This document shows, piece after piece, positions 26,942 through 53,329 of a stretch of 64,000 nt of DNA (positions are counted from its first letter, which is position 1; every line of letters begins with the position of its first letter). The notes beneath the pieces are model-generated. The model saw only the letters and a list, made by a program, of their open reading frames with translations. It searched no databases and was not told the DNA's origin. The DNA lies in NCBI RefSeq assembly GCF_963676685.1, contig NC_092349.1, forward strand, positions 75,970,473-76,034,472, given 5' to 3'. Both the position numbers and the translations under genes were made by a program. This DNA comes from Mytilus edulis (Eukaryota).

Positions 26942-27354
26942 GTAATGATGTGACAACTTACAGTTATATTAAATAAGAATCATATTTACCACCAAAGTCT
27001 ATTATTGATGAGAGACATGCTAAAGAACAACTATAAACATCACATAAACCAGATAGAGGTCAATTCTGCTGTCCTTATGACAATGTTTAACTTAACTTTC
27101 ATTGTTATACTACCTCCTTGGTGGTCGAGTGGTAGCAGGTTCTCCTCAAATGCAAGAGTTTATAGAACTGATTCCATTTCTAAAAGGGAAAATCCATTGT
27201 TTTCCTTTTTATCTTTGTAAACTATTTTAAGATTAATTTAATACATTAAATGCTTTTTTAATACTTTATTACTAACTTGAGTATTAGATTTTTCATATTG
27301 GCTATAGAATTTTTACAAATTTTACAATATCTTGTAAATTTATTATGAAATGTT

Positions 27355-27700
27355 TCCTTCAATATACTAGTCCAAAGACCATTTTTAACATGTACACATA
27401 GCATAAAATTTGCTATCTGGTCGTTAGACCAAAACTGAAGAAGTGACTTTTTATTGTTGTAAAAAAAAACATCAATACAAACTTAATAAATACCAAATGT
27501 TTAATCCACAAATGTTTTGAATAAAGATTGTGGTCTTTCAACCAAAAAGAATGTTGTCAAACGATATTGTATTATTATGGTCTAAAGACCAAATATTCAT
27601 GTATTTTCTTATTCATATAGAAAAAACAACCAAACAATTAAACCAATCTATAGGTTGTTTGATACTCATAAACTGGTCTTTAAACCAAAAAAAAAGAAAA
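27355..27700. repeat. Cluster of five short palindromic motifs of the form TGGTC(N3-5)GACCAAAA.
   Basis: ccaaagaccattttt (27374), ctggtcgttagaccaaaact (27418), gtggtctttcaaccaaaaag (27524), tggtctaaagaccaaatat (27579), ctggtctttaaaccaaaaaaa (27674). The same motif class recurs at 53320-53900. Confidence 0.55.
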
Positions 27701-28334
27701 GAAGAAGAAAATGATTCGGTAGAATTTTTAGTATTTACTATTAAAAACAAAAGATCAATATCAACGAATAAAGGCCAGATAATAAAAAACACAAAACACA
27801 TCTAGGATTCACTGTCAATGTCATTCTAAGCGCTTTGGGTCTCTCACATGTTATCAATAAGTTACTACTAAGATATTTTGGAGAATAACACAATTTTTAT
27901 TAATGAAATATTTAAAATGTGTTCGAAACTTGTAATTACAACTGACAACTGTCTGAATAATATATAAGTTGGTTTGAAATAGAAGGATAGATATGTGATG
28001 TAACAATTCTTTCCCAAAGACTTAGGAATATTTTGAGGTAAAATATCAACACTAAATGCAAATATTCATCTATCAAAAGATAAATGAACAATGATTCTAA
28101 AAGAAAATATATCGCTAAGTATAATCTATGTTTTTGGTAATAACTTTTAGTTTTAAAAAAATAAATATATCTTTAACATTCTTCTTCCTTTTCTTTGCTT
28201 GGCATGTTTTCTCTGAAATAGAAGAAACGATATATTTACCTAAATTTGCTTAATGCATATTCATCTTTTTTTCTTCAGCTTTAAAGGAAGATATCAATAT
28301 GAGGTTGAAAATGGCGATACCTTCGTGACTATTC

Positions 28335-28820
28335 ACGGAAATATTCGATGATTTTTCATTTCCTATAGTTAATTATCCGTTTTTAGATGGTGACGTTCCC
28401 TTGTCACCATCTTACGGTGTTTATATATCTCAACTTGTACGATTCGCTCGTGTATGTAACAATGTTTTAGATTTTAACGAGAGAAATTTATGTATTACTG
28501 AAAAATTATTACACCAGGGTTTTCGATATCACAAACTAGTCAAAACATTTACTAAATTTTATCATCGGTATAAAGACATCATTCGTAAATATAGCTCAAC
28601 ATGCAGACTTCTAATACGTTCAGGTATTTCACATCCAATTTTTTATGGAAATATTCTTTATAAAGCACAAAGGTGTCAGTATTCACCTCAGAAACTTACA
28701 AAACCTTTGAATAGACTTATTAAGAAGGGATATAATTACGATACTGTTGTCAAGTCATTAAAGATTGCATATTTTGGCGTTAATATTGAGTCATTGATAA
28801 GGTCTTTGCATCGGAACTAA
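28335..28820 (+). pseudogene. Methionine-free open frame of about 160 codons (…FARVCNNVLDFNERNLCITEKLLHQGFRYHKLVKTFTKFYHRYKDIIRKYSSTCRLLIRSGISHPIFYGNILYKAQRCQYSPQKLTKPLNRLIKKGYNYDTVVKSLKIAYFGVNIESLIRSLHRN). Likely a C-terminal fragment of a degraded transposable-element ORF.
   Basis: The track shows an ORF at 28401-28820 with an alternative start. The frame is open from the stop at about 28332 and contains no ATG. Family B repeats follow immediately. Confidence 0.3.
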
Positions 28821-29139
28821 ACACATTTATTCTAAAAACAGTTGTTGGCATGACACGGGTTATGTTCTTCTCATATATGTTATGATGGTATGATACTAAA
28901 TCACTAACGGGAAGGATTGTGCCTGATGTTCATATGATGATTTCATAATCTTTCAGTCAGTTTAATTGTAGTCTGGAGCTGGCATGTCAGTTAACTGCTA
29001 GTAGTCTGTTGTTATTTATGTATTATTGTCATTTTGTTTATTTTCTTTGGTTACATCTTCTGACATCAGACTCTGACTTCTCTTGAACTGAATTTTAATG
29101 TGCGTATTGTTATGCGTTTACTTTTCTACATTGGTTAGA

Positions 29140-29400
29140 GGTATAGCGGGAGGGTTGAGATCTCACAAACATGTTTAACCCCACCGCATTTTTGCGCCTG
29201 TCCCAAGTCAGGAGCCTCTGGCCTTTGTTAGTCTTGTATATTTTTAATTTTATTTTCTTGTGTACAATTTGGAAATTAGTATGGCGTTCATTATCACTGG
29301 ACTAGTATATATTTGTTTAGGGGCCAGCTGAAGGACGCCTCCGGGTGCGGGAATTTCTCGCTACATTGAAGACCTGTTGGTGACCCTCTGCTGTTGTTTT
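29140..29400 (+). repeat. Family B interspersed repeat (gggaggtt.(a/g)gatc.c.c.aacatgtttaac....c.cat...gtcccaagtcaggagcct). A second copy lies at 59745-59960.
   Basis: Shared blocks are read at both loci in the same order. Confidence 0.7.
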
Positions 29401-30101
29401 TTATTTGGTCGGGTTGTTGTCTCTTTGACACATTTCCCATTTCCATTCTCAATTTTATTGTCAATTATCGCGATCGTAAACGATACTTTTTGGGCATACT
29501 TACCCTCCAATATACTTAAAATTTCTCAAATGATAGAACAAAATACAAATTACATAATACCTTCTGATTCTTTTCTATTTCCTTTTGATGTCTTTTTTTT
29601 GTTGTTTTGGCTGTACTTGCACCTGAAATGTACGAGTTCATATACATTGTAGTTTGTTTGAACAAATCACGTTTCTACATTTTGAAAATAACATCGAATG
29701 CAGATTTTTAAATAATTGATCTTTGACTTAACATATAACAGAAGACGATAGCGAAAAAAAAAGGTCACATTTAGTAGCGTGATCGACTTTTAAACATTGC
29801 AATGATTTCCACAGAAACAAGTATTAAAATGTGTAGTGGGTCGGTCTAAAGTTGGAGCGATATGACTGTTTTTTTATACTTTGCTCCATGTTGAAGGTTC
29901 ACTGTCACTTTCAAATGAAAAACGTAGAGCGCTGTTCCTTTGGTTTTTATTTCGTGACGTATAGTATTTTTGTGTCCTATATTGATAAACTATGTCTTAT
30001 CTTTTAGTTAAATGAACTCTGGAAAGCATAATATACGGACAAACTTTTCACATCGACTTAAAGCATTATTTATATTGTGATGCTCTATTTGTTTTACTTT
30101 T

Positions 30102-30851
30102 TTATTCCAATACAATGAAACTAGAGATTAAATTGATTAATATATAAAATGAGAAATGTGAAAACTTATATAGATAAGAACTAGACCGACTTACAAAACA
30201 TTCCTCTCGCTCATTTTCCAATAATCTCCTTAGTTCTGCTGGAATGTCTTGATCAACGGATGGTCTTTGTCTTTTCAATTGCTGTTTGGGTAACAAAGGG
30301 AGAATCCATTTTGCCTTTGATAGAACTTTTGTCCTTCTGTATGGCAGACTGTCTCTAATTTTTTCTAGATGTCCAAGAAATCCTCCCCACCACTTTTGCT
30401 CTGTATGTTCTATTTGATCAGTGAATAGACATTGCCACTGTGGTATTCTAGATTTGATCTTATTTATATCTATCTTCTCGAATTGAGGATTGATAACTTT
30501 TGGTATTCCCTTTGGTAAATTAGGTTTCCCGGAAATTAGTTGAATAATGCCATGTTCAGTTTTCCATTCGCTGTCTTGGAAAGCTTTGTACTGCATTTTC
30601 ACATTATGTGTTGCTAAATCCCGGATAAACTTATAATGCAAAGGTTTAGTATGCTTACGAATGTCGTTAAGGCTTGATGTTATCCATGAACGAATGTCAT
30701 AAATAGCCTCTATATCCTTAACGTTCGGAAGCATCTCCTTCAGACGAGGCATTGTTTCAGCATCATTCCTACGAAGAGTTTCAGCTATTCGGCTAAAAGC
30801 AGCATCCACATCTTCGTGTGTATGTCCTACTGGTAAAAATGATAAATGCAC
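30102..30851 (-). CDS. Terminal exon of a transposase-like gene: VHLSFLPVGHTHEDVDAAFSRIAETLRRND... about 249 codons to the stop. It carries the probable third catalytic acidic motif (HTHEDVD).
   Basis: The track shows an ORF at 30102-30851. On the minus strand an acceptor ttttcttttcag immediately precedes it. Phase 0 joins it to exon 32844-32960. Confidence 0.65.
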   Translation of the reverse strand: MHLSFLPVGHTHEDVDAAFSRIAETLRRNDAETMPRLKEMLPNVKDIEAIYDIRSWITSSLNDIRKHTKPLHYKFIRDLATHNVKMQYKAFQDSEWKTEHGIIQLISGKPNLPKGIPKVINPQFEKIDINKIKSRIPQWQCLFTDQIEHTEQKWWGGFLGHLEKIRDSLPYRRTKVLSKAKWILPLLPKQQLKRQRPSVDQDIPAELRRLLENEREECFVSRSSSYLYKFSHFSFYILINLISSFIVLE

Positions 30852-32149
30852 CTGAAAAGAAAATTTGCTATTTGTAACAGTAAAATAATTGGTGATTTAA
30901 ATACGCTAACCTGTAATGCTAGAAAGAACTAACATTATAAGTGTGTAAAATGCCAAATTGCTTGTATTTTAAGAGTTTACAATACCCATCGTATTGAAAG
31001 GCAGTAAACTTCAAAATGTATATGAATAAAGAGCACGTGATACGCCCGTAGTATTTTCAAAGAATTAAGTTCCAGTACTCCTAAATGTCATGTTATAAAT
31101 CTATATAAAAAAAAAAAAATTCAAGGGATGTTATATTGATAGATATAAACCAGCCTTCAAAAGTTTCATGAAATCTTTTTGAGTTGTTGTCCGAAAACTG
31201 ACTAATCCCCATCCCTTTATGACTAAAACCCCACAACTAGGAACGGTAATTGCCATAATATATAAAATCGATAGCATACTTCAATAAACTTCACCAAAGT
31301 ATCATGAAAAATGTTCAAAGCATTTGACAGTTATTATCCGAAAACACTGGAAAATACCCCTTTTAAATGGATAAAATTCCTATAACTTAATTGAACACGT
31401 AAAATCTAAAATTCATAAAAAAAGAAAGAGACTCACGTAGACAGATCTATATAAATAATGTTTGATGCAGATTGTTATTATCCGACATGTTGACAACGGA
31501 CGGACGGACTAACGTTCAGCGGTATACTATAATACGTTTTCTAAACAGATGTACATGTACTTATACAAACTGTGAGTCAACTAGCCTATTTTCAAGATGT
31601 GTGTGTTAGCTCTCTGGTTAGAAAAAAGTTCCACCTAATTCATTAAGATATAACTTCTATTCAATATAAGTTTCACTGGGAAAACATTTCTAACTAAAAT
31701 CGTAGAAGTATTTTACTTCCATGCTAAAACCTTATATTACAGGCATCATAACTTACATGATCAACCAAAAGTCACACAAAAAATCCCCAAAAGGGGGTCT
31801 TGTAAATGAATGTTTTACAGACAGACGTACCATTAGCATGTATAAACTATAATCAATGATACATACATGTGTGCAATTTCAGAGGTAATTATATGGATAG
31901 GCAATAATTAATGTGTCAATTGATCATATATTTTCATAGTCTGGTAAGATACAATGTATATGTATATACTGTGCACTGTTCTTTTTATCTACTTGATGTG
32001 AATGACCCCATGTGGTTAGCATCTTTATCTGTGGAATTATTGTTGACACAAGATAATTAATCCTTATTAAGATGTCACAGATTATATGTTAGAGAAGAAA
32101 TATATACAAACCATTAATATAGTATAACAAGAGGCTACGTTTTTCAAGT

Positions 32150-32400
32150 CCAGTCCTACATTTATAGTCCCTCCTCGTGAAAAAGAAGGGGGAAGACGGT
32201 TCTGATCCCAAAATCCCGGGCTTAAAAACATGAAATCCCGAGGTCCCGAATTTAAAAAAAAAAATCCCGACATCCCAAACTTCGGAAAGAGAATTCCCGG
32301 GTCCCCAAAGCGTAAATCCCGAAATCCCGAAATCCCGAGCTTATAAACACCCCGAAAAATGTCCTGCCGCCCCTCAAGACCATACAATTTCGAATAAAGC
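32150..32400 (-). repeat. Repeat related to the interior of the 21640-21960 foldback (gatcccaaaatcccgggcttaaaaacatgaaatcccgaggtcccgaatttaaa).
   Basis: Near-identical 50-nt blocks match 21700-21780 in reverse orientation. The ORF at 32082-32438 is rejected as coding. Confidence 0.6.
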
Positions 32401-32843
32401 AAATCATTGTATTTATTTCTCGAGTAATAATAACACATAAGAATTCAGTGCTGATGAATTTTAATGTACTATATTTTCAAGGATTTGAGGGATCACAGGA
32501 CCTTATAATTATCCAATACCCACCCCCTCCCCCGGTTGGATCTGCCTATACATTATGTTTAACACTTCCCACAGTTTTAACCCTTAAACCAAACCGTTTT
32601 AAATCTTGAAATAACCACACCGTTTAAATCTAGCAATAGCTAATACTTATTTCTTGAAGTGAAGAGGAAGTCCTCAACAAATTTGCCGAGCGGAGGTAAG
32701 AGGAATATATATATTTTTTTTGCGTAAAACTATTTTCACCTTTAAGGGTGCACACGCTCATATATATACCCACACAACCACCGGGTAACTGTTCCTTTCA
32801 ATAAAGTAACAAGAATCGCAATGATTTGTAAATTGCAACTTAC

Positions 32844-32960
32844 CTCATTGAAAATGCGTTGGTGAACAAGGAGTTCACAAAAACCCAATACATATCGATT
32901 TTTATTTTCCCGCCAACAATTATCTGCTTGCAAGTACAAAATAGGCGGTAACTTGTTACC
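32844..32960 (-). CDS. Transposase-like exon GNKLPPILYLQADNCWRENKNRYVLGFCELLVHQRIFNE. It contains the probable second catalytic Asp (ADNC).
   Basis: Minus-strand acceptor ttcttgtag and donor GAG|GTAAGT (acttac at 32838-32843 on the plus strand). Length 117 nt, phase 0/0, compatible with both neighbouring exons. Confidence 0.55.
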
Positions 32961-33469
32961 CTACAAGAACAATAATCATAAAATTACTTCAGTATAGTAT
33001 CTTACCACAGTTTTACCTTATAGACACATCGTTTTATAATAAACTTCTTATAATCACTCGTAATAATCCGTAAATGGCTCCCGAACAATTCATTAAAACT
33101 GTCAAAACTGTCGCAAAATGACCAAATCGTAAGGGTTTGTGAATGTGTGTGATCCTTAAGGGCTCGTTAGATAAGTTCGTGGATGTGAAACGGTGCAGGA
33201 TAACTGGGATTGTCCATAGATCAACTCAAACCATCTACAAAGTCAACTCGGATCAGCCTATTCAGACAAAGAGATGTTCTACTTTTTAAATTATTAAACG
33301 AGTGTCTACGAAGAAGACAATTCAGACCGTCAATGAAAATGCAGCGAGATTATTAATGATAATCATCTATAATAAAAAAGAATTCAATTTATGGAAAAAT
33401 TACGGATTTACATAAAACTTTTTGGGGGCACATTAACTCGATTTCAAAGGCAACAAGTTAAAATGGCAA

Positions 33470-33592
33470 TTGTTATGCCCCACCTACAATAGTAGAGGGG
33501 CATAGTGTTTTCTGGTCTGTGCATCCGTAAGCCCGTCCGTCCGTCCGTCCGTTCGTTCGTTCGTGTACTTTGGACACATTCTTGTTATGTTA
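33470..33592 (+). mobile_element. Family C MITE, internally deleted derivative: head gccccacctacaatagtagaggggcat, (CCGT)n core and tail gtgtactttggacacattcttgtt only.
   Basis: Both termini of the family are present, about 120 bp apart. The interior seen in the 18166 and 50118 copies is absent. Confidence 0.7.
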
Positions 33593-34197
33593 AATATATA
33601 ACAATTAACCATTCAAAAAGCATAAAACTCTGTCATTCAAATTATATGGCTAATCAGACGAACTTATTTGTTTTGGGTGTATAGATTAATTATTTTTAAC
33701 AAATTAAAAAGATATGTAGAAATGTGGATAACAGTAAAACTCGAAACCAATTCAATACTTAATTGATATGGTGTGCCGCTTGGATTCTGTTATCTCATTC
33801 TTTACATAATACTTTCGATTCAAAAAATGTATTACTTTTCATATAATGCCTAGGATAAATGCAACTTTTTATTGGTATGATTTTGTGTGATGTGTTCATA
33901 GGAGTTCAAATCTGAGAATCAGCTATTCCTTATGTCATGTTTACCTACAGCGAGACTTTTTGATGTGAAAAAATACAGGGCGTGTCATATAACAAGTAAT
34001 TGGAACTCTTTTGACCTTATTTCCGATTGTTTTCAAAGATATTCATATATTTTCAAGCTGGAAATGTGACCAATTCAAGCGGCACGCTCTATCACTTTGT
34101 ATATAGTATAGGGAGTGCTCATCACCACCCTCACCCCACCCGAGGTCACACATGTATTGCCTGATCATACGTTTAAATTGTGAAGTGTTTTACTTAC

Positions 34198-34359
34198 CAT
34201 AAGTTTTGAAATCTGGTGAAGAATTAGCATAAGGATATTCATGGTCAGGTTAGAGTCGTGCGCATATTGGTTCCAGTCGAGAAAGGTGAAAAATTTATTT
34301 TGTCCATGAGCTAAAACTCCGGTGACATGTGTCGTTAGTTGATCAACTTTATTCACAGC
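34198..34359 (-). CDS. Transposase-like exon AVNKVDQLTTHVTGVLAHGQNKFFTFLDWNQYAHDSNLTMNILMLILHQISKLM.
   Basis: Minus-strand acceptor ttttagtgcag and donor ATG|GTAAGT (acttac at 34192-34197 on the plus strand). Length 162 nt, phase 0/0. Confidence 0.5.
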
Positions 34360-34985
34360 CTGCACTAAAACGTGTCAATAAGACAACTACATATATATGT
34401 AAGGACCAAAGTAAAAGATATATACAGATATAGATTCGTTTTAAATTAATTTTTTTTACTATACTAAAGAAATATAATAAAAAATGATTTACAAGGCATA
34501 CTAAAAAGAGGAAGTCTGTAAAAAACTGACAAAATCAAACGCTGTGTACGGAACAAGTTAATTCGAAACACAATTGCCATATTCCTACATTTTTGTAGCT
34601 TGGTACATAAATTCTAATTTAAAAAAATGGAGGTACAATGTCGCGTATGACTGTATGGATCTGTCATTTAATTTACAGTTGTGGCGTGGTCGTAAATTCG
34701 CGAATAATTCCTCTCAAACTGCCGTCTAAAAACTTGCAATGAGATAAAAGCTTAGTATGATAAATTAATTGTACATAAAAAATCGCTCTAAATGGATAGA
34801 TTGATTTATTGTTGGTTGCTTAACCTCTGGTGCTCTTTAAAAGAAAACGTTTGCATGGTAAAAGATACAAAATAATGTCTGAATAATTCCAAAGTTCCAC
34901 ATCAAACTCTATAATCGGAAGAAAACTATGATGTTCGTACATTTCCGAAGAGGGAATTTTCTGTTATACAAAATACCTAACTTAC

Positions 34986-35026
34986 CTTTGCCATTCGACC
35001 AACAAAATGAGGAAGATTCGTTTTTG
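34986..35026 (-). CDS. Micro-exon (41 nt) KTNLPHFVGRMAK of the transposase-like gene.
   Basis: Minus-strand acceptor tgttttcattgtag and donor AAG|GTAAGT. Its phases (1 in, 0 out) bridge the flanking exons exactly. Confidence 0.4.
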
Positions 35027-35476
35027 CTACAATGAAAACAAAATTTAAAGTTCATGTTATAAATAGGTAAAATTATGAAAAAAATAGGCAATCTGATAAA
35101 CTGTTTAAATTGTCATTTCAGTCATCCAAATTTGATTTAATAGAATAACATCACAGTTAAATTCCCATTTGGAATACAAAAAAAAAGCGGAAAAAAATAA
35201 TTCCTTATCGAATTCGTTTCATTAGTTTGAACAAAATAGAAAAGATTTTAACTTCAATGTTTTTTCTGTTCATTCCAGATCTTATTGGTTATGCCTTTAA
35301 AGTTATCAGATGCTCAAAGGCAATGAGAAATTGGCAAACTGAGTCAATAGTATATCGACTTATACAAAACTGACGCAATTTTAACTGACTTTTACAAAAA
35401 TGACCGACCATTAATCTTACGGTCGACTCATTTTTCTCTAAAAAGTCCAAATATTTAGCCGTAGATCATAACTTAC

Positions 35477-35568
35477 ACTGATCCATTCCATCTATAATTA
35501 AGCTTAAATATTGTGATGGGGATGTCTTTGCAGCGTTTTTCTTTGTGTAATAGTACTTTCTTTCTAAC
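35477..35568 (-). CDS. Transposase-like exon ...LERKYYYTKKNAAKTSPSQYLSLIIDGMDQ(S). It contains the probable first catalytic Asp (IIDGMDQSK).
   Basis: Minus-strand acceptor ctatttttgcag and donor CAGT|GTAAGT (acttac at 35471-35476 on the plus strand). It enters in phase 2, so at least one more 5' exon exists that I could not place. Confidence 0.45.
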
Positions 35569-36601
35569 CTGCAAAAATAGAAATTAAACATGTTAAAATA
35601 TTAGTTTGCTGTTCAGCTTGCTTCTAGTAGCAAGCAAAGTCCACAAATACAACCCGATAAATTGATTGTCAGATTTTAATTTTATTCATATTGTTAAATA
35701 TCAGCTGCTAGATACGATATGGAGCTTTTTGAATTCGTTTGCTGCGCTCACTCGACAAAAAACTTCTTATCGTGACCTGCAGCTTACCATTAATATACAG
35801 ACATTGTCAATGTAACACACAAACATAAACAACAGGACACGGTCGATAAATATTATTGGCTGTAGCTATAGTAAATTTATATTCTTCTATGTGTAGTATA
35901 TATTATAACTTGACTTTGATGTCATATTTATTAATTGCATATTTTATACATACATCTGTCTGCTATTGTGTTCTCTTCGTTCAGCTCGCAATTTTTCTCT
36001 CATCACTGGATCATGCGTGGTCTCTATCTGTCTTTCCAAACTTGTACATACTGTGCATTTCGAAAAGGAATTGGTCTGAAAGTGTAAATACAATTACAAT
36101 ACACATAGCATATACTGGCAAATGTTTGCGCTACATACCAATGACTAATTTGTAACTATTTTAGTTGCACTTTCACATCTACATATACGTAAGAAGTCTG
36201 AATTTATAAGTTAAATCCACAGTTAACGTTTTGCGAATAATCAAGTCAGTGGCGGATCCAGAAATTTCATAAGTGGGGGTCGACTGACTGCCTAAGAGGG
36301 GGCCAGCTCTGGTCATGCTTCAATGATTCCCTATATAATCAACCAAATTTTCCAAGAAAAGGGGGCCGCCTAAATCCGCCTCTGCATATACAATTATAGT
36401 GAAATTGGTTAATATTAAACTGTCCAAAATATGTCCTGGTTTACAGCATCACCTTTGTTTCATAATGTACCCCATATAATGGAATAACAATTATTGGTAC
36501 CATTTTTTTCACGCAAAGGAACATACACGTTTCAGACCTTATTTTTTTTAATATAAGTTTTAACTTGATTAAAGATTTGTGCCTAACTTGTTTGTTTTAA
36601 T

Positions 36602-37194
36602 TTATACCTTTTTGACTTTAAGATTGGGTAAATATTTTTTCCACATTCCGTAGAAGGCTGATGGCATTAAAAATTCTTCTGATCTTTCCTTCATATCTTC
36701 TTTATATCTTATATAAATCATGCACTGTCGTGTCCGATAAGGTAGTAAGAGTGTATTACAGTCGGGCATCCTGTCAACGTAATATGTAGCGTATTCTTCC
36801 AGCCAGTTTATAGCTTGGAGTGATTTTATGCTGGCACAGTAGTGTCTCTCCGATACAGAAAAACGTGCTCCTCCTATGAACTTTTTTCTATTAGAGTAAT
36901 AGAAATTTTTGTGAATTCCAAGCATTCTCATCAATGCCTTTGGACAAACGACATGTCCGTTCTGTATACGGAAGTATGGTGTATACTCCATATTAGTTTC
37001 AGAGAACTTTTTTAATAACCACTGGTTGCGACCATTTATTGTCTTTGACCAGAATTCCAATCGCATGTTTTTAACCTCCACAAGAGAGAATTTCTTCGTA
37101 CAAACTTTACTACAACAGCGCCTACATGACTTTAAATCCTTCTGAATACTTGCTACTTTTGTATGACGAGCAAGGAGACGACTTCTCTCTGGAT
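36602..37194 (-). CDS. Terminal exon of a second minus-strand gene: (H)PERSRLLARHTKVASIQKDLKSCRRCCSKVCTKKFSLVEVKNMRLEFWSKTINGRNQWLLKKFSETNMEYTPYFRIQNGHVVCPKALMRMLGIHKNFYY...KVKKV, running to the stop. It has a Cys-cluster (CRRCCSKVC) domain.
   Basis: The track shows an ORF at 36602-37081. The frame is open upstream to the minus-strand acceptor catttttgtag (ctacaa at 37195-37200 on the plus strand). The phase-1 entry matches the donor of exon 38509-39439. Confidence 0.55.
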
Positions 37195-37954
37195 CTACAA
37201 AAATGTGATATGATAGTTTTGTTAATAAACTAAAACACTAATTTTATGTATTTATTTGTTTTTATCTATTTTAAGCTCTCTTTGTTATTTTTCCCGCTTT
37301 ACTTAAAGCTATTTTTCCCGCTTTACTTAAAGCTATTTTTCCCGCTTTACTTAAAGCTATTTGATCATCAAACGTAATCAATCAATCTTATGTATTTGAA
37401 CATGCAATTAACCGTAAGTGTTTCAACCACATGTGATTTAATCAACTGACTAAAGAAAAGATTAACGAACAATATGTAACATATGAATACTGATAAAGAA
37501 CAATTGACCTTCACAAAATATCTCATGAACCTTTAAGACCATCAATTAACGTTAGCCATAATGAGCACTCATTGAAACATTATTCTCAAATCATGACAGA
37601 TTTTAATAGGATAGTACAAATCATTGCTCTTCTTTTAAAACACGAAAACAATACGCAATAAATTAAATGCGTCCGATGCATTTTTCTAGATTAACCTCCA
37701 CCAAGAACTCACAAAGCTTCGATGCATAAAAACGATACAGTTGAATAGCTATTTAATAAAAAAAAATCACTTAAAAATAATAGCCAAAATCCTTCAAATC
37801 CTTCAAACGCCAACTTTGCCTAAGGTAGTTGAAACGTTTCTAATTATGCTAGTAAACACCAAATTTTATTAAGGAAATTCACAACCATTTAATGTACTGA
37901 AATAAGTGTATTATCGTTTGTCGAGCAAAGGCAAGTCATATTTCTCTTTAGAAT

Positions 37955-38400
37955 GAAATTCAAAACAGTGTGGCTGTGGCTATTGATTGACACATTAAAT
38001 TCATCCATTGGCTGGGACAATTTAGGTGAACGTTTGTTTGTAACAACCACTGCTCACTATGTACTTTTTAAAGACACTTAAACTATTGGGTCACCAAAGG
38101 TTCTTCACCAAATGTTCTCAACACCTTAATAAAGTAATTCGAAAAATTAATCAGAAATAACACGATGTTTTGATTTATACCAATTATATAAATCAAAACA
38201 TAAAGGTTATTCCTGATTAATTTTTCGAATTATTTTATAAGTAAAGGCGTTAAGAAACCGTTGGTGACCCCACAGTTTAAATGTCTATCGTAGGTACGTC
38301 GTGAACAGTGGACGTTACAGACAAACGTTCACGTAAATTGTCCCAGTCAATGGATGAATTTAATGTGTCAATCAATGGCCACAGCCACACTGTTTTGAAT
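37955..38400. mobile_element. Near-perfect palindrome/foldback element of about 450 bp (cagtgtggctgtggc...gccacagccacactg) with a palindromic AT-rich centre. It sits in the intron of the 36602-39439 gene.
   Basis: 37960-38060 is the exact reverse complement of 38290-38395. The centre 38115-38240 is itself palindromic (taataaagtaattcgaaaaattaatcag...ctgattaatttttcgaattattttat). Confidence 0.85.
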
Positions 38401-38508
38401 GTCATTCTATATTACTTTCTAACTTATGGATAGAGAGTTGTCTCATTGGCACTCATACCACATCTTTCTATCTCTATTATGATAACAAACAAAAAAAAAA
38501 ACACTTAC

Positions 38509-39439
38509 GTGATTGCGATTCAAGCAAAGGTTTTGTTTCTTCTTGGGGAAATGTAGCTCTAACATCATGATACATTTCTGTCATACCAATTGATGCATCT
38601 GAATACACTGAAACATTTTCATTTATACTGCTTTCTGAGCGAGAACTAGCAAGATATGAAGTTCCTTCAAAACCAGAAGATAGTGACAGTATTTCGGTTG
38701 ATGCTAGATGAAGTGTTTCCGTATCATCTTCGTTGAATTCATAAGGCGACGAAGGGCAAATATTACATCTCAGTTTTGTGCTAATTTCTGAACCCATATA
38801 ACAAGAACTTTCATGTTCACTGCTGGAAATTCCGAACGTTGGTTCTAACTCGATTAAAGTTCTATTTACGGAATAATCAAACAGTCCAAAGTCATAATTA
38901 TCATCTGATATGTCTGCCACCCCACTAATCACTGGTATTTTTCTTGGTGTACTGGTCATTAAAGCTTTGTTTGGCGATTTTAATGTTGTGTCATAATTTA
39001 CTGCATACTCTTCAAATGACTCTAATGTTTTTGTTTCTAGAATCAACGACAGGCTGGATTCAGCAGTGTTGCTTAAGTCTCCAAAACAATATGAATCAGA
39101 CTGTCCAAGATTATGTAAATCAGAATCTCCAAGATTATACGAATCCCCTAAATTATGTAGCTCCGACAATGAATCTCCTAAATTTACCCCGTGTTTTTCG
39201 GTATAATTTAAACACACTACTGAGTTTTCCGCTGATTCTAAAAAATGAGAACCGACAAGATTAATTGAATTTACAAATGTATATTCATCAGTAGCGCTCG
39301 ATGCATCAGCGAAAACAGTCACATCGTTCAATCGATTATTATGAGCATAAACTAAAAGTGACAATGGATATTTGTAGCCGTATTTTATTCGCTGAACTCC
39401 GGCAGTTTGTGTTGTGTTTCTGTTTTCATGTATACCCAC
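38509..39439 (-). CDS. Exon encoding a Ser/Asp/Asn-rich low-complexity protein segment (…NLGDSYNLGDSDLHNLGQSDSY…SSEHESSCYMGSEISTKLRCNICPSSPYEF…PLLESQS). The 5' boundary is undefined.
   Basis: The track shows an ORF at 38477-39439 on the minus strand (alternative GTG start, no clear ATG). A canonical minus-strand donor TCAC|GTAAGT (acttac at 38502-38507 on the plus strand) gives a phase-1 end that joins exon 36602-37194 in frame. Confidence 0.5.
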
Positions 39440-41271
39440 GATCTCTTATACTCGTATATATATTCATACGGTTAAAATCAGAAAGCTGATGAAGCCTTGT
39501 AACGTATGAATATTGAATAGACTAAGTGATAAAATTAATATATATATACTGCATACATATAGTGTAAACGTTTTGAAACTGTATTGCATGACTGTTTTAC
39601 TATTGATAGTTTTGAATTCTTTACGTTTTACTTTACGTAAATGAGTGTAGGGCAAAAAAAAAAGGGGGGGGGGGTCCTCTGCGCTACAATGTATCAATCA
39701 AAATTTATCTTCTTCAAAATTCAATAATGAATATAAGCTATGAGGGAAATCAGATGGATTTAAATTAATTTTTGTTGTCAACGGCCTCACACAAAAAAAA
39801 TCAATCAAATTTGGGATCAGCATATATTTTTTAGGAAAACAAATCATAATCCCCTCCCCTTTGAAGTTTAATGGTCGTTCTCTAATTTTGGTGCTATTTT
39901 CACATTTCCTGACCGGTGTGAGAAAAAAAAATTCTCCTCACTATTGAAAAATCTGTTCTCGGCAAATGATTGGTTGAAAAGTTAATTGTGACGTTTTCTT
40001 CTTAATTTAACATACACAATTCAATTGAATGTCTTATTTAAGTCTCATCCCTCAACAAGTACATGTAAATAAATACATTGTAACTTGAACTAACACTAAA
40101 TAAATTGAGAGCCATTATCAGAGACTATAACATGCTTAGATATAATACACTAAACAATATGAAATAAAATACTATTTACACATGTACATACGGAGAGTGA
40201 AATCACTTTATATAATAATATCCATTATTCAGATGACGATAGGTCATAAGTTGGAAATAAGTACCGACTGTATACCATAGCAAAAAAGAAATTAAAAAAC
40301 AAACAACTACCAACTAATTTAAAACACTACATGGAAAATACGGAAATGGGGGTTAGCAATACGAGCGCATTAAAAAAAATCTTATCGCATGTGCTGGAAT
40401 ATAGAAAAAAAAGTAACTGTAGGTCTGAATAAATTACCTATTTTTTTTTTTTTTTATTTATTTAGAGTTGTCGTCTTGCTTTATTTATACAATATTATAT
40501 AGGCTTATTAAACAGTTGTTACAGTATAGCTAAAACAAATAGCAAAGAAACAATCACCACTGCTTAAGACGTAATCCCACTGAATGTGTGGATCGTAGCT
40601 TTTAAGTTATGCAATGTCCAGATAAAATGTTACAGAATCTGCGCCCCGTGGTGAAAATTGCCGTAAAAGTAATGTATGTATACTAAGTATTCCGATCTAT
40701 AACGAAAAATCTCACCCGCGATCACATCCTCAAAGCAAGAAAACACTTACATGTAATGCGATTAGCTCTCCAATTATAACATTTAGGAGGATTAATACGT
40801 TACTATTAACAGGATTATATTAAAGTCTGTTTTGTGAAAATTCGTAACTTGATAAACTTGTCTAAGTGGTTTTTTATTAGATGTCCGCTCCTGACCCCAT
40901 ACTTTTGAAATTTATCATTTGATATCAGTCCTGTGACTGAAAACAAGCTCAGCGTCACAGGCCGTAGGAAATTGTATATGGAACGTCGAAAATAGGATAG
41001 GAAGGTACAAACATGTACAGTTCCCATGAAATTTTTTTTGTATATATAAAAAAACAAAGGAAACATTTTAGTCTTGCTACCCACGTGTAACTAGCAAATC
41101 GATGTTTATCCTCAAGAATACCAGATTAACCTTTATTTGATTTATTAGGTTAATAAGGTCCACTAATTTTCCCTTATCTACTAAATATTAAAGCATACCC
41201 AAAGAAAAGTGATATATACTGTATGATCTGTCTGCATTGAATATGTTAAATTCATTAAAAAGGAGTGAAAG

Positions 41272-41470
41272 ATATAATCACAACAATAAATCATAATAAA
41301 AGAAGATGCGGTATAATTACAAAAAAGGCATTTCTCCGCAAGAGACCAAATTACACAGACATTAACCACTATATGTCACCATACGGCCTTCAACAAGACA
41401 AATGTTAATAAGTTCAAACGAGAACACTAACGGCGTAATTTATGTACAAAATAAGGATCGAACAAAATAA
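41272..41470 (+). repeat. Diverged family A SINE/MITE-like copy.
   Basis: gaagatgcggtataattac...tatgtcaccatacggccttcaacaag...caaacgagaacactaacggcgtaatttatgtac. Confidence 0.55.
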
Positions 41471-42067
41471 TATGTAAAACAGCAACAAACGACAACGTTA
41501 CCACTGAATTACAGGTTCACGAATAGGGACAGGCAATTTTAGAATGTGACCGAACCAAGTATATATAAGCGAACGCCTTACACCCCTCTTTTTTCTGTAG
41601 AGTATACATTCGGTTTTTTAAAAAAAACCGCCAATAACTACCCAAATGTATCTTGAAGTCTTTGATCATGAATATTTAAAACATTTTAATTATAATAATA
41701 TATGTGAACCTCTATATCTTTGAATTAATCATTTTTTTTTTTATTTTTTTAAAGATATGAATATTTCAAATTGACTTACCTCTGAAACTGGGTTGCAGTT
41801 CTCTCTTATATTCGTCTTGACACCATTCAAAGTTTGAACAGATAACAACACGCTTAAACACAAAGCCGATAAAAAAATACAGCAGTCCATTATGTTCTAA
41901 TTGGAAAGTAAGAAACACATGGTTTAAAAATATACATGTAAAAAATGCGCACGTGTCTAGCAGGCGTGGCTTCGCAATGCGATTAAATATAACCAGTGGT
42001 GTGACATTGTAGCAGTCCACTATTTTTTTTCTTCTAAATCGAGATCAAACGGTCATATTACGCAATA

Positions 42068-42190
42068 ATGTCGGGTTCAGAGAGATGGAAAATCATGATT
42101 GAAAACGGAAGACTTTGTGTAGAGGAAAATGGTAGATATTTTGAGGACATCGACAATGTTGGAACAACAAGAGAATTTGGAATTATCAAG
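42068..42190 (+). CDS. First coding exon (ATG at 42068): MSGSERWKIMIENGRLCVEENGRYFEDIDNVGTTREFGIIK.
   Basis: An ATG followed by an open frame ending at donor AAG|GTGACT (GT 42191-42192). Phase 0 joins the next exon. Confidence 0.6.
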
Positions 42191-42926
42191 GTGACTATAT
42201 AAACATTTTAGTAATTTACAATTTTATTTGGTCAATTGTGGATAAGAAAAGCCATCGGAAAAAAAACTACAAGCTCAACAAACTTGTATTGAATGCAAAT
42301 AAAAATATTCAAATCAAAATAATACATAAAAGTAAAGAGATACTTTTAAGTATAGAGTAGATAACTTTCTATTAAAAGTTGCATTTAACTTATATTAAGG
42401 ACGTCACTAACACAATTAGTGTACTACATGTATACTATTGTTTCTTAACACATTGTTTTGGAGTTGTAAACATAGGAAACTCTAAAAATATAAACTGAAA
42501 TAGTAAAACTGTTTTCTTCTTCTGTATTGAACATTGTTGAATTACATCTTCAAATGTTAGGGCAAGTACATTTAGATTTTGAATTCCTTGACATCATGTC
42601 AGTGTTTTAAACAAAATCATTGATTGATCTTGTACATCTCTCTACATAAATATCTCAACTCTCGTTTTCAGAATGAAGTTTACTTTTATTAATGTTAATC
42701 CATCAATAAGCTGCATATTCTTTATTACATTTACTCTTGTGAAGTAACAACTGTTCATTTTATTGTGGAACGGTCATACAATTCACATTTGTTTTTATTT
42801 TAGACTTAACACATTATCAATCAATACATGTATATTAGTTTTCGTCAATACAGAAATACGACTGTTGGCTTCATGTTCAATGTCTGTCAACGTTCACAAA
42901 AACATGATGTTTTCTTATAATTTAAG

Positions 42927-43047
42927 GTTACATATGAATCTGGAAAAGCAAAAATGTATAGTTTGAAAAACTTATGCGAAGGTCTTGGTTTTGGGCCAGC
43001 TGTCAAGACTCGTTCAGGTTTTATGAAAATATGGAACTCCTTGAAAG
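42927..43047 (+). CDS. Exon VTYESGKAKMYSLKNLCEGLGFGPAVKTRSGFMKIWNSLK(G).
   Basis: Acceptor ttataatttaag (AG 42925-42926) and donor AAAG|GTGAGA (GT 43048-43049). Only one frame is open and the phases are consistent. Confidence 0.6.
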
Positions 43048-44180
43048 GTGAGAAATGTATTTAAAATGTGTGTGTTGTTCTTGTATCATGAGTACATAGT
43101 ATGTGTATGAGTATTTGCTTCTCTTGCATTCGTCACAACTCGGCCGATTCCGTACCTCCATCTAAAGATAGAAGGAGAGTAGCGGTAACTCCGAGGATTG
43201 CCAACTGCTACTCTTGATTTTGACATTTTGTCCGATATTCGGAATCCTCTAGTTTTATCCATGTAGTACCAATAAAAAAAAAAATACACTACCAACCCTT
43301 ATTTTTTTATTCATATTTTTATTACATATAGTTAAACTAGTCATTCATGAAAATCTTATACAATTCTTGTTATTTTTTCATAGTGTTTGAAAGAAAAAAA
43401 GGTACCAATTTTAAATGTGTGAGCATTCTAAGAGAGAATCATTTCCCGCAAAATTTTCAATTGATTATATCTTAAAAACAAAGTCGCGGACCTATTATTT
43501 TTTCCTGCTTTTTAGCCTAGGTTCAGTTATTAATATACTATCAATTTATACCAGTTGATCAAAAAGCTAGTTATTGTCAAAAAGAGAAGCGAACATCCTT
43601 AATCAAACTAAGGCCTTAGTTGCTGTCGTATATATTTTAAACATTGAATTTTTGGCGATGTCAAGAGGCTGATATTGTTTTTAAAAAAATGACTACCATG
43701 AACAAACATTGATAATACCGTATTTCCATGACTAGTAATCCTCGCTCCAAACTCCACTGGACCTCCTACGGCACCCGCTGGTACTTGTAGTTAAATATTT
43801 GATTGTATTCAACAAATTAATTTATGAACTGCATGTACGTGACGCTTATATACCAAATGGTCAATATTAATCATCCGTGTTATTTGCTCTATGGGATGTT
43901 TGTAAAATTTCAACGGAGGCAATGTCTTGGCATGATAATATCAATGAGCTTTTATTCGTATATTTGTCAAGTCTTTGTATGTGTTTTATTTCGTGATAGG
44001 AGGGGGAAAAGAAAAAAAGGTAAAAGGGGGTGGGTTATTGGCTGTCTTTGCCTACAACAATGTACTAGTGGGGTGCGTGTGAGTGCTTTTCTGTGTTTAT
44101 TTGTCCAATTGGACTTGTCGTTTTTTTTACTGAAGAATATAACTGTAGCAAACAAGTTTTAACTATATAATTTTTTACAG

Positions 44181-44264
44181 CAAACGTAGACAATTATCAG
44201 CTACAGACATCTTCAACAGATAACATTGATCAGCCGGAGAACCAAGTTAATATGAATATTTCAG
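44181..44264 (+). CDS. Exon ANVDNYQLQTSSTDNIDQPENQVNMNIS (phase 1 in and phase 1 out).
   Basis: Acceptor ttttttacag and donor TCAG|GTAGAT. Only the phase-1 frame is open, matching the phase of the previous exon. Confidence 0.6.
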
Positions 44265-44692
44265 GTAGATGTGATTCTTTTAATACATATTTGATATTTA
44301 CACACGCTTTCGTGAAATCAAGTTACTAAAGTAATCCATAAATATGATAAAATTCGGATTGAAAAACTCTTACCATAACCAATAATATTAATTCATATTT
44401 TTGCAATAACCCTATAATATTAATTCATATTTTATAAATAAAAGAAGTTATAGTATACTAGTATGCGTATGTGAGATGACAAGTAACGATTCTAGAGGTT
44501 CTATTATCGCCGTATTACATTTACGAATATTTTTTTTTAAATTGCATCTTCGCTTTTCTGCACAAACCCCCATAATACATGTACAATGTTCAAAAGGGGG
44601 GGGGGGGGCTGTATCCGTACAATCTTCAACAATAATGGACAGGCCGGCTATACGGACAAAAGTGCAATCATTAAAAAGACGAGGTACATTTG

Positions 44693-45243
44693 TACGATAA
44701 GGCCCGTTTTTTGGCCCCTCCCCCTATTTTCTTATTTTTCAAAAACTGTTTTGGAAAGCTTGTTATCACGTTGACGTTTGTTTGGATGAACTTCAAAACC
44801 ATTAATTTTAGAAAATGGTTGAGATTACTGGGTTAAAAAGGTATCAAAAACGCCAAATGATTCTTTGGCATTGTTTCTATAAAAAATCTAACACGCGCCG
44901 GAGAAAATAATGGCGATTTAGACAGCAAAAACTGTTATGACATGACATTGGAATTAAAAAAAATCCTGTGCCACGTTGGCGCAGGCACCTAAAAACTAAA
45001 AATTCGTTGTACGGAAGACCTGCAATTTTAAGTGAATGATAATTACAATATTTGAATTATAAAAGGAAGTTTACTCACTCACCTTACCCAGTTGCTAGTA
45101 TTAGTGGTTTTGAAGTTCATCCAAACAAACATTCAAACCTCAGGGAATATTCTAACATAAGACGTAGCTTTCTAAAACAGAATTTGAAAAATGAGAAAAT
45201 AGGGGGGCCAAAAACAGGCCTTATCGTACCAGAATTTCCAGTT
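44693..45243. mobile_element. Foldback element: ~120-bp inverted repeats (44693-44800 and 45105-45243) around a ~300-bp spacer. It lies in an intron of the 42068 gene.
   Basis: gtacgataaggcccgttttttggcccctccccctattttcttatttttcaaaaactgttttggaaagc...gtttggatgaacttc reappears reverse-complemented at 45105-45243. Confidence 0.75.
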
Positions 45244-45584
45244 TTCCTGCCACACCGACTTCTTGCAACAGAGATTGTTTTTGTTTCTGTTATAATTAAG
45301 AGTTTGTTTTTTTTACTATTCACTGAATCATAATATGAGTCATGTGGTCAATTTTATTCGTTGAACTTAGTTCTAAAGCATAAAACATGACGCGGACGTT
45401 ATGATTTTGTTCGAGTATCCGGACAAAAATGATACAAGAAATTTGGTATCTGTTGAAGATTTTTTTTTTTACAAAACATACATTAAAATTAACATTATAA
45501 TAATTGTGTTTGCAAAGTTCCATTCTTTTGTTGTGACAAATACGAAACATCTAATTCAAGATAATGCTTTTTTTCTGTGAATAG

Positions 45585-45716
45585 ATGTACCAGGAGGGGA
45601 GGATTTAACCAGCACTGACGACAATGTAAACACATTGGATAATGTGCAAAGAAAATCCTCGACGCAAAAATCACCAGTCCAAAAGAAATTATTGTCACCA
45701 ATGGACAGTTCTGAAG
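45585..45716 (+). CDS. Exon DVPGGEDLTSTDDNVNTLDNVQRKSSTQKSPVQKKLLSPMDSSE (phase 1/1).
   Basis: Acceptor ttttttctgtgaatag and donor GAAG|GTATTT. The other two frames carry stops. Confidence 0.65.
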
Positions 45717-45980
45717 GTATTTTTTTAATCCTCCTTCTTGCAAACAATTGATCTGCTGCTTCGTAATACTAGTCATGTGAATTCGGCAAACAAAAATCAA
45801 TAGTAAATAAGATATGTATGCAAGTAATATAAAATCTATTGCACTTAATATATATGCTTTTACAATAAAACTGGAAGAGACCAAGAACAAGTTAAAAATG
45901 TTAATGAAAATTATTTACTATTTGAATAAAAACCATAATTACGATGCGAAAATTTTATGTATATTTTTCTTTTGCAACAG

Positions 45981-46112
45981 ATGCATCGACAGTTGAAGAT
46001 ATTCTAGGACGTAGCGTGGGTTCTTGCACTGAAGCGCACATAAATACAGAAGACGCTTCCGATAGCACACCAGTTACAGTGGAGCAGTCAATTTTGGACG
46101 ATTATTTAATAG
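45981..46112 (+). CDS. Exon DASTVEDILGRSVGSCTEAHINTEDASDSTPVTVEQSILDDYLI (phase 1/1).
   Basis: Acceptor ttttcttttgcaacag and donor ATAG|GTATGA. Only the phase-1 frame is open. Confidence 0.65.
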
Positions 46113-46194
46113 GTATGATATACCATCTTCATTCTCTTAATAGGCGCTACTCATGGTATGAAGTATAGAAACTTTTAATATTAACTTTTATACT

Positions 46195-46302
46195 GACTAT
46201 ATGTTGAAGGCCGTATGGTGACCTATTATATTTGTTAATTTGTGTCATTCGGTCTCTTGTGGAGGGTTGTCTCATTGGTTATCATACCACATCTTCTTTT
46301 TT
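46195..46302 (-). repeat. Family A SINE/MITE-like copy (reverse orientation) in an intron.
   Basis: ...gttgaaggccgtatggtgacctat...gttgtctcattggttatcataccacatcttc. Confidence 0.7.
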
Positions 46303-46741
46303 TATACTTGTCTGTTATTTTGACATCGCCAAACATGTTTTATCTCTAGTTGCTGTTTTTGTTTAATGACCATTTAAGAAAAATAATGTGCAAGTCTTAG
46401 TTTTGAACAAACTTGGGGATCGAACACACGATTACAAGGATCACTTCCAGAGGCAAGTTCTCCGAGGATGTTATTTTTTTTTATTGCATATACGGGTACT
46501 GGAAACTATAACCATATCAACTTCAGAAATATTACTTTTACATCAAATGTTCAAACACTTGCTCATTAAGTGAACAACATATTTTTTTTTATATATTTTG
46601 AACTCGAAAAATTACAGCGCCCCCTTACGGTCATTGTCCTCCTGAAGTGATCAAAGTGATCGTAATATAACGACTGGATTATTCGGGTTATTTGAATTGT
46701 TGATTTTCCATTCTAAAGTGATAGCATTTGTTTTCTTTTAG

Positions 46742-47510
46742 GAGACGCATTAAAGGTACATATTCAGAACTTAGTTATACCTGCCGATGATCGCTGTTTT
46801 CGAAATCTGGACACGAAACATGCTCACTGTCTAAAACAATTTTATGAAAATCAGCAAATGTGTCATACAATTCTCATTGGCAACATTGTCGGCGATGTTA
46901 CTACTGATAAAGGTAATTTGTCAAAGTTTCTTCAAGAACCTGGCAAAGTAGCAGTTGAAACTTTAGGTGGTAATCATACAAGACATGCGCTACAATGTTT
47001 ATTCGCAAGCCAAACGAAGCCTATTAGCATGGTAACATGTCGGTTATACAACAAATTACCAGACGAGTTGGCGCTACAATTAGGGTATGAACACAATGCA
47101 TCTAATACATTAGGAAAACCGACAAGTTTTGTTGATTTAGTAAAGATGTTTCGAAAAGAAGCAACAAAAATAGTAGGAGATACAGATATTAGCTGCATGC
47201 AAAGTAGTGAAGTAAAGCAATGGAAAGATATTATATGTACTATTCTAGGGATGGACAGAAAGGCGGAAGAATTTCATAACAAGTACAAGATTGTTTTAAA
47301 AATTGCAAAATCAAAGGATTCCGTATGGAGAAAATTTTTAGAATTCTGTTCCGCTTTCGAAATGAATGAAATTAGAAATACTCCAAGAGGATCCTTAAAG
47401 ATTACACAGTTGAGAGATTTTTCAATGCTTTCTAGTGATAACCAAATACATATTTTGGAAGAAACTTTACAGACAAAAGACTGGAGAGTATTTAAGAGAG
47501 AAGTAGAAAG
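46742..47510 (+). CDS. Large exon (768 nt, about 256 codons) carrying a ParB/sulfiredoxin-like motif (…CHTILIGNIVGDVTTDKGNLSKFLQEPGKVAVETLGGNHTRHALQCLF…). It ends either at the stop TAA 47512-47514 or at the overlapping donor AAAG|GTAAAT.
   Basis: The track shows an ORF at 46858-47514 (218 aa). The frame is open back to acceptor gttttcttttag (AG 46740-46741) in phase 1, matching the previous exon. A long ORF in AT-rich sequence is unlikely by chance. The GGxHxRxA pattern resembles the sulfiredoxin FGGCHRYAA motif and the ParB GERRxRA motif. Confidence 0.65.
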
Positions 47511-53238: not shown

Positions 53239-53329
53239 ATTGAATATTTGAAAAAGAAAATGTTACCGGTTGATTATGATATACATGTACTGTATGTACC
53301 TTTCTAATCTATGAATAAGTGTGATTAGA

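Follow-up and report, generated by a model that had tools for sequence, protein, structure and literature searches.

A large Sola1-like DNA transposon with an intron-containing transposase gene in the genome of Mytilus edulis

A 64,000-bp stretch of the Mytilus edulis genome (RefSeq assembly GCF_963676685.1, contig NC_092349.1, positions 75,970,473 to 76,034,472 of the forward strand) was analysed; it is called the window below, and positions are counted from its first letter. An earlier note had marked in it a gene on the minus strand, split into at least five exons at 30102-35568, whose product resembled a DDE-type transposase, and had left open whether it was a domesticated host gene or belonged to an intron-bearing transposon lineage. 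Our analysis indicates that the gene lies inside a Sola1-like element that is intact at both ends and was probably active in Mytilus recently, and that it is not a domesticated gene. With a probability of roughly 0.88, the 26,987 bp between 27166 and 54152 are one copy of a large, autonomous cut-and-paste transposon of the Sola superfamily, closest to Sola1, and the split gene encodes its transposase. The element is probably autonomous, and the copy in the window may still be active.

The boundaries of the element were established by comparison with three loci of Mytilus galloprovincialis (L001, L002 and L004), all from the assembly GCA_900618805.1. L001 and L002, which carry members of the 90% identity cluster described below, follow the window collinearly from 27163/27166 until they end at ~51.8 kb, far past the transposase gene. 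The window, L001 and L002 lose similarity at one shared nucleotide, the last of ...AGAAATGGAATCAGTT, past which they continue into unrelated DNA beginning with CTAT, ATAG and ATGT, respectively. The left end is therefore marked by L001 and L002, while the right end is marked by L004, which was fetched with the protein of a second gene carried by the element and is 98.8% identical up to the same right-hand nucleotide before it diverges (AAAT...). The two termini form terminal inverted repeats (TIRs) of 45-48 nt with four mismatches, which the repeat search returned as 48 nt at 90% complementarity; this pair is the sole long-range inverted repeat above 80% complementarity in 27100-54250, and the reverse complement of the left terminus was found at 54137-54152.

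Both termini are flanked by ATAG, and the fifth base beyond the two copies is mismatched, which sets the target site duplication (TSD) at 4 bp. An empty site, with the element removed, would read ...GAGTTT-ATAG-GTATTTAC... The 4-bp duplication pointed to Sola as the superfamily to compare. The hallmarks of Sola1 are a 4-bp TSD with a preference for AWWT/AWDT and TIRs starting with GGACC/GACC (PMC3845634, citing Bao et al. 2009), and the TSDs of Sola2 are AT-rich and 4 bp long (PMC3627910). The flanking tetranucleotides are ATAG in the window and L001, ATGT in L002 and AAAT in L004; in this set of only four sites, ATGT and AAAT fit the Sola1 preference, whereas ATAG deviates from it at the fourth base. 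The mussel termini start with AAC, not GAC, and show only a loose RAC..TCC..AAAAGGG likeness to the ends of the Anadara Sola1 element used as a reference below.

The copy count suggested by the earlier note gave at least four copies (window, L001, L002 and L004) with identical termini and unrelated flanks, and paralogues of the gene were found on several chromosomes. The cluster at 90% identity has 34 members, comprising full-length and truncated models, which are located on at least two M. edulis contigs (93.9 and 71.3 Mb) and on four M. galloprovincialis contigs (86.6-115.9 Mb), all of chromosome scale. A further locus, L005, is an older truncated fragment, ~90% identical and without a terminus.

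The comparison of substitution rates that had also been proposed was carried out between copies. The exons of L002 differ from those of the window at 7 of 2349 nt (2 synonymous and 5 nonsynonymous differences) and those of L001 at 23 of 2502 nt (9 synonymous and 14 nonsynonymous), and the ratios of nonsynonymous to synonymous divergence (dN/dS) drawn from these few differences are 0.20 and 0.34 (dS 0.0195), respectively. The substitution divergence of the introns from the window is 0.65% for L002 and 4.65% for L001, and the transposase coding sequences of both loci are free of stop codons. These values fit a family of recent origin in which the transposase stays intact in the active lineages. 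Scored per 500 bp, identity between the window (27000-54152) and L001 varies in a mosaic fashion between 88% and 99.8%. It is 98-99.8% in the block 47000-50000 and ~91-97% in the neighbouring blocks, a pattern that points to gene conversion or recombination among the copies, or to constraint acting locally.

The five exons described previously, with canonical GT-AG boundaries and consistent phases, are present on the minus strand with polypyrimidine-AG acceptors, GTAAGT/GTATGT donors and compatible phases, and the translation of the joined exons is 100% identical to XP_071181315.1 (P0001), an 861-amino-acid 'uncharacterized protein [Mytilus edulis]'. The splice model therefore matches the public annotation and is no chance assembly. 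The gene is larger than first described: it has at least 9-10 exons running from 41890/39232 to 29575 with GT-AG at every boundary, and its ~2.6 kb of coding sequence span ~12.3 kb of genomic DNA. As for the extent 30102-35568, the exons within it proved real, but the last of them ends at 30195 at a GTAAGT donor and not at the stop codon at 30102, and the gene continues both upstream and to 29575. The features of the element are listed in Table 1. The assignment of 41780-41890 as the first exon of the window copy is uncertain. The 5' region at ~39300-39440 differs from that of the sister copies, which may explain the differing first exon in the RefSeq model. The Pfam search with the N-terminal exon 38509-39232 gave no match, and the product of exon 36608-37194 aligns with the N-terminal part of the Sola1 protein. 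The C-terminal tail of the window copy reads QQKKDIKRK before the stop codon, as opposed to QQKKTSKGNRKESE... in the sister copies, because of one extra A in a poly-A run.

Table 1. Position, strand and characteristics of the features of the Sola1-like element in the window.
Feature	Position	Strand	Remarks
Complete Sola1-like DNA transposon, 26,987 bp	27166..54152	- (strand of transposase gene)	similarity to three M. galloprovincialis loci stops there
Left TIR, AACTGATTCCATTTCTAAAAGGGAAAATCCATTGTTTTCCTTTTT	27166..27210	+	pairs with 54108-54152
Right TIR	54108..54152	-	L004 ends at the same nucleotide, the last of ...GGATTCAGTT
TSD ATAG, left copy	27162..27165	.	abuts the terminus directly
TSD ATAG, right copy	54153..54156	.	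abuts the terminus directly
Candidate 5' exon, MDCCIFLSALCLSVLLSVQTLNGVKTNIRENCNPVSE followed by a GTAAGT donor	41780..41890	-	first exon in the sister-copy models P0121, P0132 and P0133
Exon of the non-conserved N-terminal region (AENSVV...ESQS)	38509..39232	-	open frame reaches up to 39439
Exon with CC-x3-C motif and helical N-terminal domains	36608..37194	-	acceptor tttttgtag, donor GTATAA
Exon with the invariant C202-x2-C205 ... H231 motif	35954..36075	-	
Exon ending IIDGMDQS, putative first catalytic Asp (D262/D265)	35477..35568	-	
41-nt exon, KTNLPHFVGRMAK	34986..35026	-	
Exon with beta2-beta3-alpha1 of the RNase H core (THVTGVLAHG, HDSNLT)	34198..34359	-	
Exon with LYLQADNCWRENKN (ADNCWRENKN), putative second catalytic Asp D347	32844..32960	-	DNCGGQNKN in Sola1
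Exon with VGHTHEDVDAAFS (LPVGHTHEDVD), third acidic residue and C-terminal domain	30195..30851	-	
Final 48-nt exon, VQVQPKQQKKDIKRK and stop codon	29575..29622	-	joined from the GTAAGT donor after ...EECF (30195)
Main exon of the second gene, opposite strand (KVHIQNLVIPADDRCFRNLD...ETLGGNHTRHAL...)	46741..47514	+	
Coiled-coil ORF/exon	48931..49260	+	joined to the second gene in model P0138
Further coiled-coil exon of the second gene	49595..49798	+	

The transposase protein matched a single Pfam domain, DUF7869 (PF25273; E 1.4e-74, 250 bits), and nothing else up to E 1, and so none of the transposase domains of Tc1/mariner, hAT, piggyBac, PIF/Harbinger or other Pfam-defined transposase families; the earlier note had already set aside Tc1, hAT, piggyBac and Harbinger by their signature motifs. 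Neither a sequence search of the PDB with the protein nor a literature search for DUF7869 found anything. Among word-indexed candidates, 436 homologues were retrieved from bivalves, amphioxus, echinoderms, hemichordates, cnidarians, a nemertean and a sponge, many of them as several paralogues per genome; transposons typically show such a patchy, multi-copy distribution. Across 60 aligned homologues, the residues C202, C205, H231, D262, D265, Q345, N348, K354, N355, G382, H383, T384, H385, D389 and F392 are invariant, and D347, E386 and D387 are nearly so.

The AlphaFold2 model computed with this alignment as input has a mean predicted local distance difference test score (pLDDT) of 89.9. Its elements follow the RNase H order, beta1(256-263)-beta2-beta3-alpha-beta4(341-347)-alpha-beta5(373-379)-alpha(386-401), with the acidic residues sitting where this fold expects them. 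Foldseek against the PDB returned IS21 IstA (E 1e-4), Mos1, the PFV integrase and Metnase, all of them DDE transposases or integrases. The fold and these matches agree with the DDE-type, RNase-H-fold transposase proposed from the motifs. The spacing of the motifs also held: D262/D265 and D347 are separated by 82-85 residues and D347 and E386 by 39, close to the ~78 and ~39 noted before. The third acid of the triad was judged by comparison with Sola1 and Sola2. The residues of the catalytic region common to Sola1, Sola2 and the mussel clade are D265, D347, H383, D389 and F392; E386 is specific to the clade, whereas D389 is conserved throughout Sola. A DDD triad (D265, D347 and D389, the last D of HTHEDVD) is therefore more probable than D-D-E386. 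The Sola superfamily is reported to encode DDD transposases. A DDD triad on an RNase H-like fold, as a Sola feature, is probably present in the mussel protein according to the alignment and the AlphaFold2 model.

In some annotated proteins (P0007, P0010, P0037, P0041, P0051 and P0093), DUF7869 is joined to an OTU, protein kinase, MYND or OGG1 domain; such models may be chimeras predicted across a transposon insertion and not real fusions. A 4.4-kb Logan contig (L003) encodes an intronless homologue of 821 amino acids with 41% identity and may represent a transcript. The contig was checked for TIRs but proved too short at its 5' end. Downstream of this open reading frame (ORF), at 3100-4290, a motif of ~20 nt, AAATTTACCCCAAGGCTAAA, is repeated many times in both orientations, and the array may consist of subterminal transposase-binding repeats.

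The superfamily placement was based on references for Sola1 and Sola2. The Sola1 reference was Sola1_A.kagoshimensis_23#DNA/Sola-1, a curated bivalve consensus from the supplementary library of Martelossi et al. 2023 (PMC10294476), whose label derives from the curation with hidden Markov models (HMMs) in that study and was not taken directly from Repbase. Its four exons join in frame into a 656-amino-acid ORF that matches DUF7869 with 66 bits (cut-off 26; E 4.3e-18). The comparison of this ORF with the mussel family profile gave an hhalign probability of 99.7% (E 4.4e-26) over 466 columns, and the alignment extends into the Cys-rich, helical N-terminal region. With BLASTP, the ORF matched the mussel protein at E 4.6e-13 with 22% identity over 277 residues, and the mussel family HMM scored the Sola1 protein at 151.7 bits.

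For Sola2, the transposases of Sola2_DFa-2 and Sola2_PPa-1 were taken from Additional file 3 of Bao & Jurka 2013 (PMC3627910); the Pfam search with these reference proteins gave nothing useful. A single Sola2 sequence gave no significant match to the family profile (E 0.2) and a profile of three sequences reached a probability of 71% (E 3.6e-5), both of which are superseded by a profile of 58 sequences. The latter started from P0143, which matches the Sola2_DFa-2 transposase at E 5e-26; searching it against 1.84 billion representatives yielded 1163 relatives, from which the 58-sequence Sola2-like alignment was made. Over 310 collinear columns, it aligned with the mussel profile at a probability of 97.5% (E 6.6e-12). 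DUF7869 is the only Pfam family to recur among the 58 members, ten of which match it weakly. The Sola2-like HMM gave ~1 bit to the mussel protein and 33 bits to the Sola1 protein. These comparisons place the mussel protein among the transposases of the Sola superfamily, nearer to Sola1 than to Sola2. They indicate that it is related to Sola2, by a link detected in profile-profile comparison only, but is not a member of it. On the evidence of the sequences, the superfamily that the earlier note had left unnamed is Sola, with Sola1 as its nearest group.

In the mechanism that we propose, the transposase gene would be transcribed from inside the element and spliced in vivo from at least 9-10 exons, as the annotation and the splice signals suggest. 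Its product would have Cys-rich and helical, winged-helix-like modules for DNA binding at its N terminus, together with a CxxC...H motif and a core of the RNase H-like type, in which the putative catalytic acidic triad is most likely formed by D265, D347 and D389. By analogy with other DDE/D transposases, the protein would bind the 45-48-bp TIRs and excise the element, which would insert at AT-rich tetranucleotides with duplication of 4 bp.

The element could also belong to Sola3 or to an unnamed fourth lineage of the superfamily, with the mechanism unchanged. We regard this as unlikely but as carrying appreciable weight, given the identity of only ~22% to the Anadara Sola1 protein, the score of that protein against DUF7869 (66 bits, compared with 250 bits for the mussel protein), the different intron positions and the distinctive first (DGMDQSK) and third (GHTHEDxD) motifs. 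However, Sola1 is clearly closer to the mussel protein than Sola2 is (151.7 bits vs ~1 bit), the second motif DNCxxxNKN is common to the mussel protein and Sola1, the termini are loosely alike (RAC...TCC...AAAAGGG), and the AT-rich 4-bp targets fit the Sola1 pattern in part.

The introns bear on the question of domestication. In the numbering of a 592-residue protein, the mussel introns lie after or within residues 195/196, 236, 267, 280, 334, 373 and 592. Positions approximated by tblastn are 196, 236, 267, 376 and 593 in the homologue of the oyster Saccostrea cucullata (L006, gene from 10001, 42% identity) and ~190, 236, 263, 279 and 374 in that of the amphioxus Branchiostoma belcheri (L007, gene from 10001, 38% identity), so that the majority of the mussel positions recur in both. 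The Anadara Sola1 consensus also bears introns, at other positions. Introns are therefore normal for the superfamily and old within the clade, and they are no sign of domestication.

It is very improbable that the gene is a domesticated transposase, an intron-containing host gene that no longer moves and that selection preserves for a role in the cell, and of the two possibilities raised by the earlier note, the transposon lineage stood and domestication did not. The many long introns resemble those of host genes and share positions with the oyster and amphioxus homologues (38-42% identity), the exons are better conserved than the introns between copies (dN/dS ~0.2-0.34), and the gene is annotated as an ordinary protein-coding gene. 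However, the dN/dS values come from only 23 and 7 differences, and a curated mobile Sola1 consensus carries introns too. Moreover, a domesticated gene would be expected at a single syntenic locus with its TIRs and TSD lost, whereas this one still has intact TIRs and a TSD around it. Its termini are shared by at least four copies with unrelated flanks, and near-identical paralogues, some of them truncated, are dispersed over several chromosomes in two species.

Finally, it is hardly credible that a block of at least 25 kb was multiplied by segmental duplication or as uncollapsed haplotypes, with a coincidental inverted repeat at its ends and the gene as an old immobile relic: L001 and L002 are indeed collinear with the window over 24.7 kb, second gene included, their source assembly presumably retains uncollapsed haplotypes, and divergence that is mosaic between 88% and 99.8% is expected from gene conversion between duplicates, but breakpoints would not hit one nucleotide in four independent ends, nor would they fall where a 48-nt inverted repeat meets a direct duplication of 4 bp, and haplotigs would have common flanks, whereas the flanks here differ.

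Several observations weigh against a mobile Sola1-like element. The same presumed retention of haplotypes in GCA_900618805.1 makes the copy count from L001, L002 and L004 alone uncertain, though their flanks differ. The TSD is a single 4-bp match with one copy visible at both ends, of a kind that arises by chance roughly once per hundred or more trials, and ATAG departs from AWWT/AWDT at one position. A search for an empty site, in which the flanks of the element were compared with all fetched sequence, found no second copy of the flanks. The window copy carries a 1.1-kb insertion, a shifted C-terminal tail and an altered 5' region, and may itself be inactive. With ~22% identity to the Sola1 reference, and with Sola1 and Sola2 as the superfamily references compared, the subgroup label Sola1 is less secure than the superfamily label Sola. 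At 27 kb, the element is also ~5 times as long as the mean curated bivalve Sola1 (5.4 kb; PMC10294476).

The second gene lies on the opposite strand within the element. Across the region of its main exon, L001, L002 and L005 match the window at 98-99% identity and L004, which covers 216 nt of it, at 100%, while the sequence adjoining it in L005 is only 87-91% identical to the window. In L001, the exon has no stops and shows 4 synonymous and 5 nonsynonymous codon changes; the alignments of L002 and L005 contain gaps, and the stop count covers L001. Only ~7 homologues were detectable, and the Pfam search gave no match. One homologue, P0136, showed a sub-threshold similarity to TIGR03187, DGQHR (ParB/DndB-like; E 2.6e-4, 20.8 bits vs a cut-off of 58.9), and its motif LGGNHTR resembles DGQHR. 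The single-sequence AlphaFold2 model of the second gene (pLDDT 44) was too poor for use. A tblastx search next to the oyster and amphioxus transposase homologues did not find a counterpart; the second gene is therefore not a conserved partner gene. It is conceivable, if rather improbable, that the 27-kb element represents a 'giant' Sola branch (Sola3 or unnamed) whose introns predate the mollusc-cephalochordate split or spread between the two groups, and in which a lineage-specific accessory gene, ParB/DndB-like (DGQHR) and with a coiled coil, would serve the element's own transposition or its escape from silencing by the host.

The element also contains smaller insertions. A 461-bp palindromic unit at 37949-38409, resembling a miniature inverted-repeat transposable element (MITE), has arms of 154 nt (88% complementary) and sits within the intron that separates exons 38509 and 37194. 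L001 lacks it, and the corresponding region of L002 also aligns reversed at ~80%, as a palindrome would. At 44720-45206 there is another MITE-like unit, ~487 bp long, which contains inverted repeats of 41 and 61 nt nested in one another. The 1.1-kb insertion at 28346-29455, downstream of the transposase stop codon, is present in the window copy only (not in L001 or L002) and holds a 139-amino-acid ORF (28401-28820, plus strand) with no significant Pfam match. Outside the element, a 621-amino-acid ORF at 12343-14208 (plus strand) with a long Arg/Ser-rich repeat (SRSRSRSYRRP...) and no Pfam match is probably an exon of a host gene. An ORF fragment at 17924-18319 (plus strand) matches the clathrin propeller repeat (PF01394, E 3e-6) and may be an exon of a clathrin-heavy-chain-like host gene.

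These results answer the question left by the earlier note in favour of a mobile Sola-type transposon and not a co-opted host gene. They also tie DUF7869, a domain that labels hundreds of 'uncharacterized' proteins of marine invertebrates, to Sola1-type transposases, which would help to exclude such genes from host gene counts and from presence/absence analyses of bivalve pan-genomes. The low intron divergence and the intact frames suggest that the family has recently been active in Mytilus and could be a source of structural variation. The known workings of Sola elements are unchanged by the mussel element, which belongs to a known superfamily. What sets it apart is its 27-kb size, the extra gene, the intron positions common to different phyla and the link between DUF7869 and Sola; in other respects it is ordinary.

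Among known systems, Tc1/mariner transposases (Mos1, Sleeping Beauty), IS21 IstA and retroviral integrases resemble the mussel protein in fold only, with no sequence or Pfam match; their N-terminal domains differ, and the TSD of Tc1/mariner is TA. KolobokP (PMC9587614) was dropped as a candidate because its TTAA targets and long terminal direct repeats were not seen in the mussel element. SETMAR/Metnase, THAP9 and PGBD5 are likewise intron-containing, transposase-derived genes annotated as host genes; in contrast to them, the mussel gene retains its TIRs and TSD and is multi-copy with varied flanks, with no fixed syntenic locus seen. The Sola2 elements DFa-2 and PPa-1 of dictyostelids (PMC3627910) show a remote but significant homology that is collinear over all motifs. 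Published Sola2 elements are 10-14 kb long with multi-exon genes and an extra captured gene (PMC3627910), and the mussel element is likewise large, with a multi-exon gene, an extra gene and an AT-rich 4-bp TSD. However, the Sola2 motifs DFKEN, WxDxGPHFR and YHGKSxxDxHF are unlike those of the mussel protein, and the accessory gene of Sola2 is Fanzor, not the mussel ORF. The mussel element differs from Sola1 in its second multi-exon gene and in intron positions that are not those of Anadara Sola1. Nevertheless, Sola1 is the closest of the systems compared: its transposase is homologous to that of the mussel over almost the full length (hhalign 99.7%), both match DUF7869 and share the motifs CxxC...H, D, DNCxxxNKN and H-x5-D-x2-F, and the likeness extends, loosely, to TIRs starting with RAC, and further to a 4-bp AT-rich target duplication, a transposase gene with spliceosomal introns and a bivalve host.

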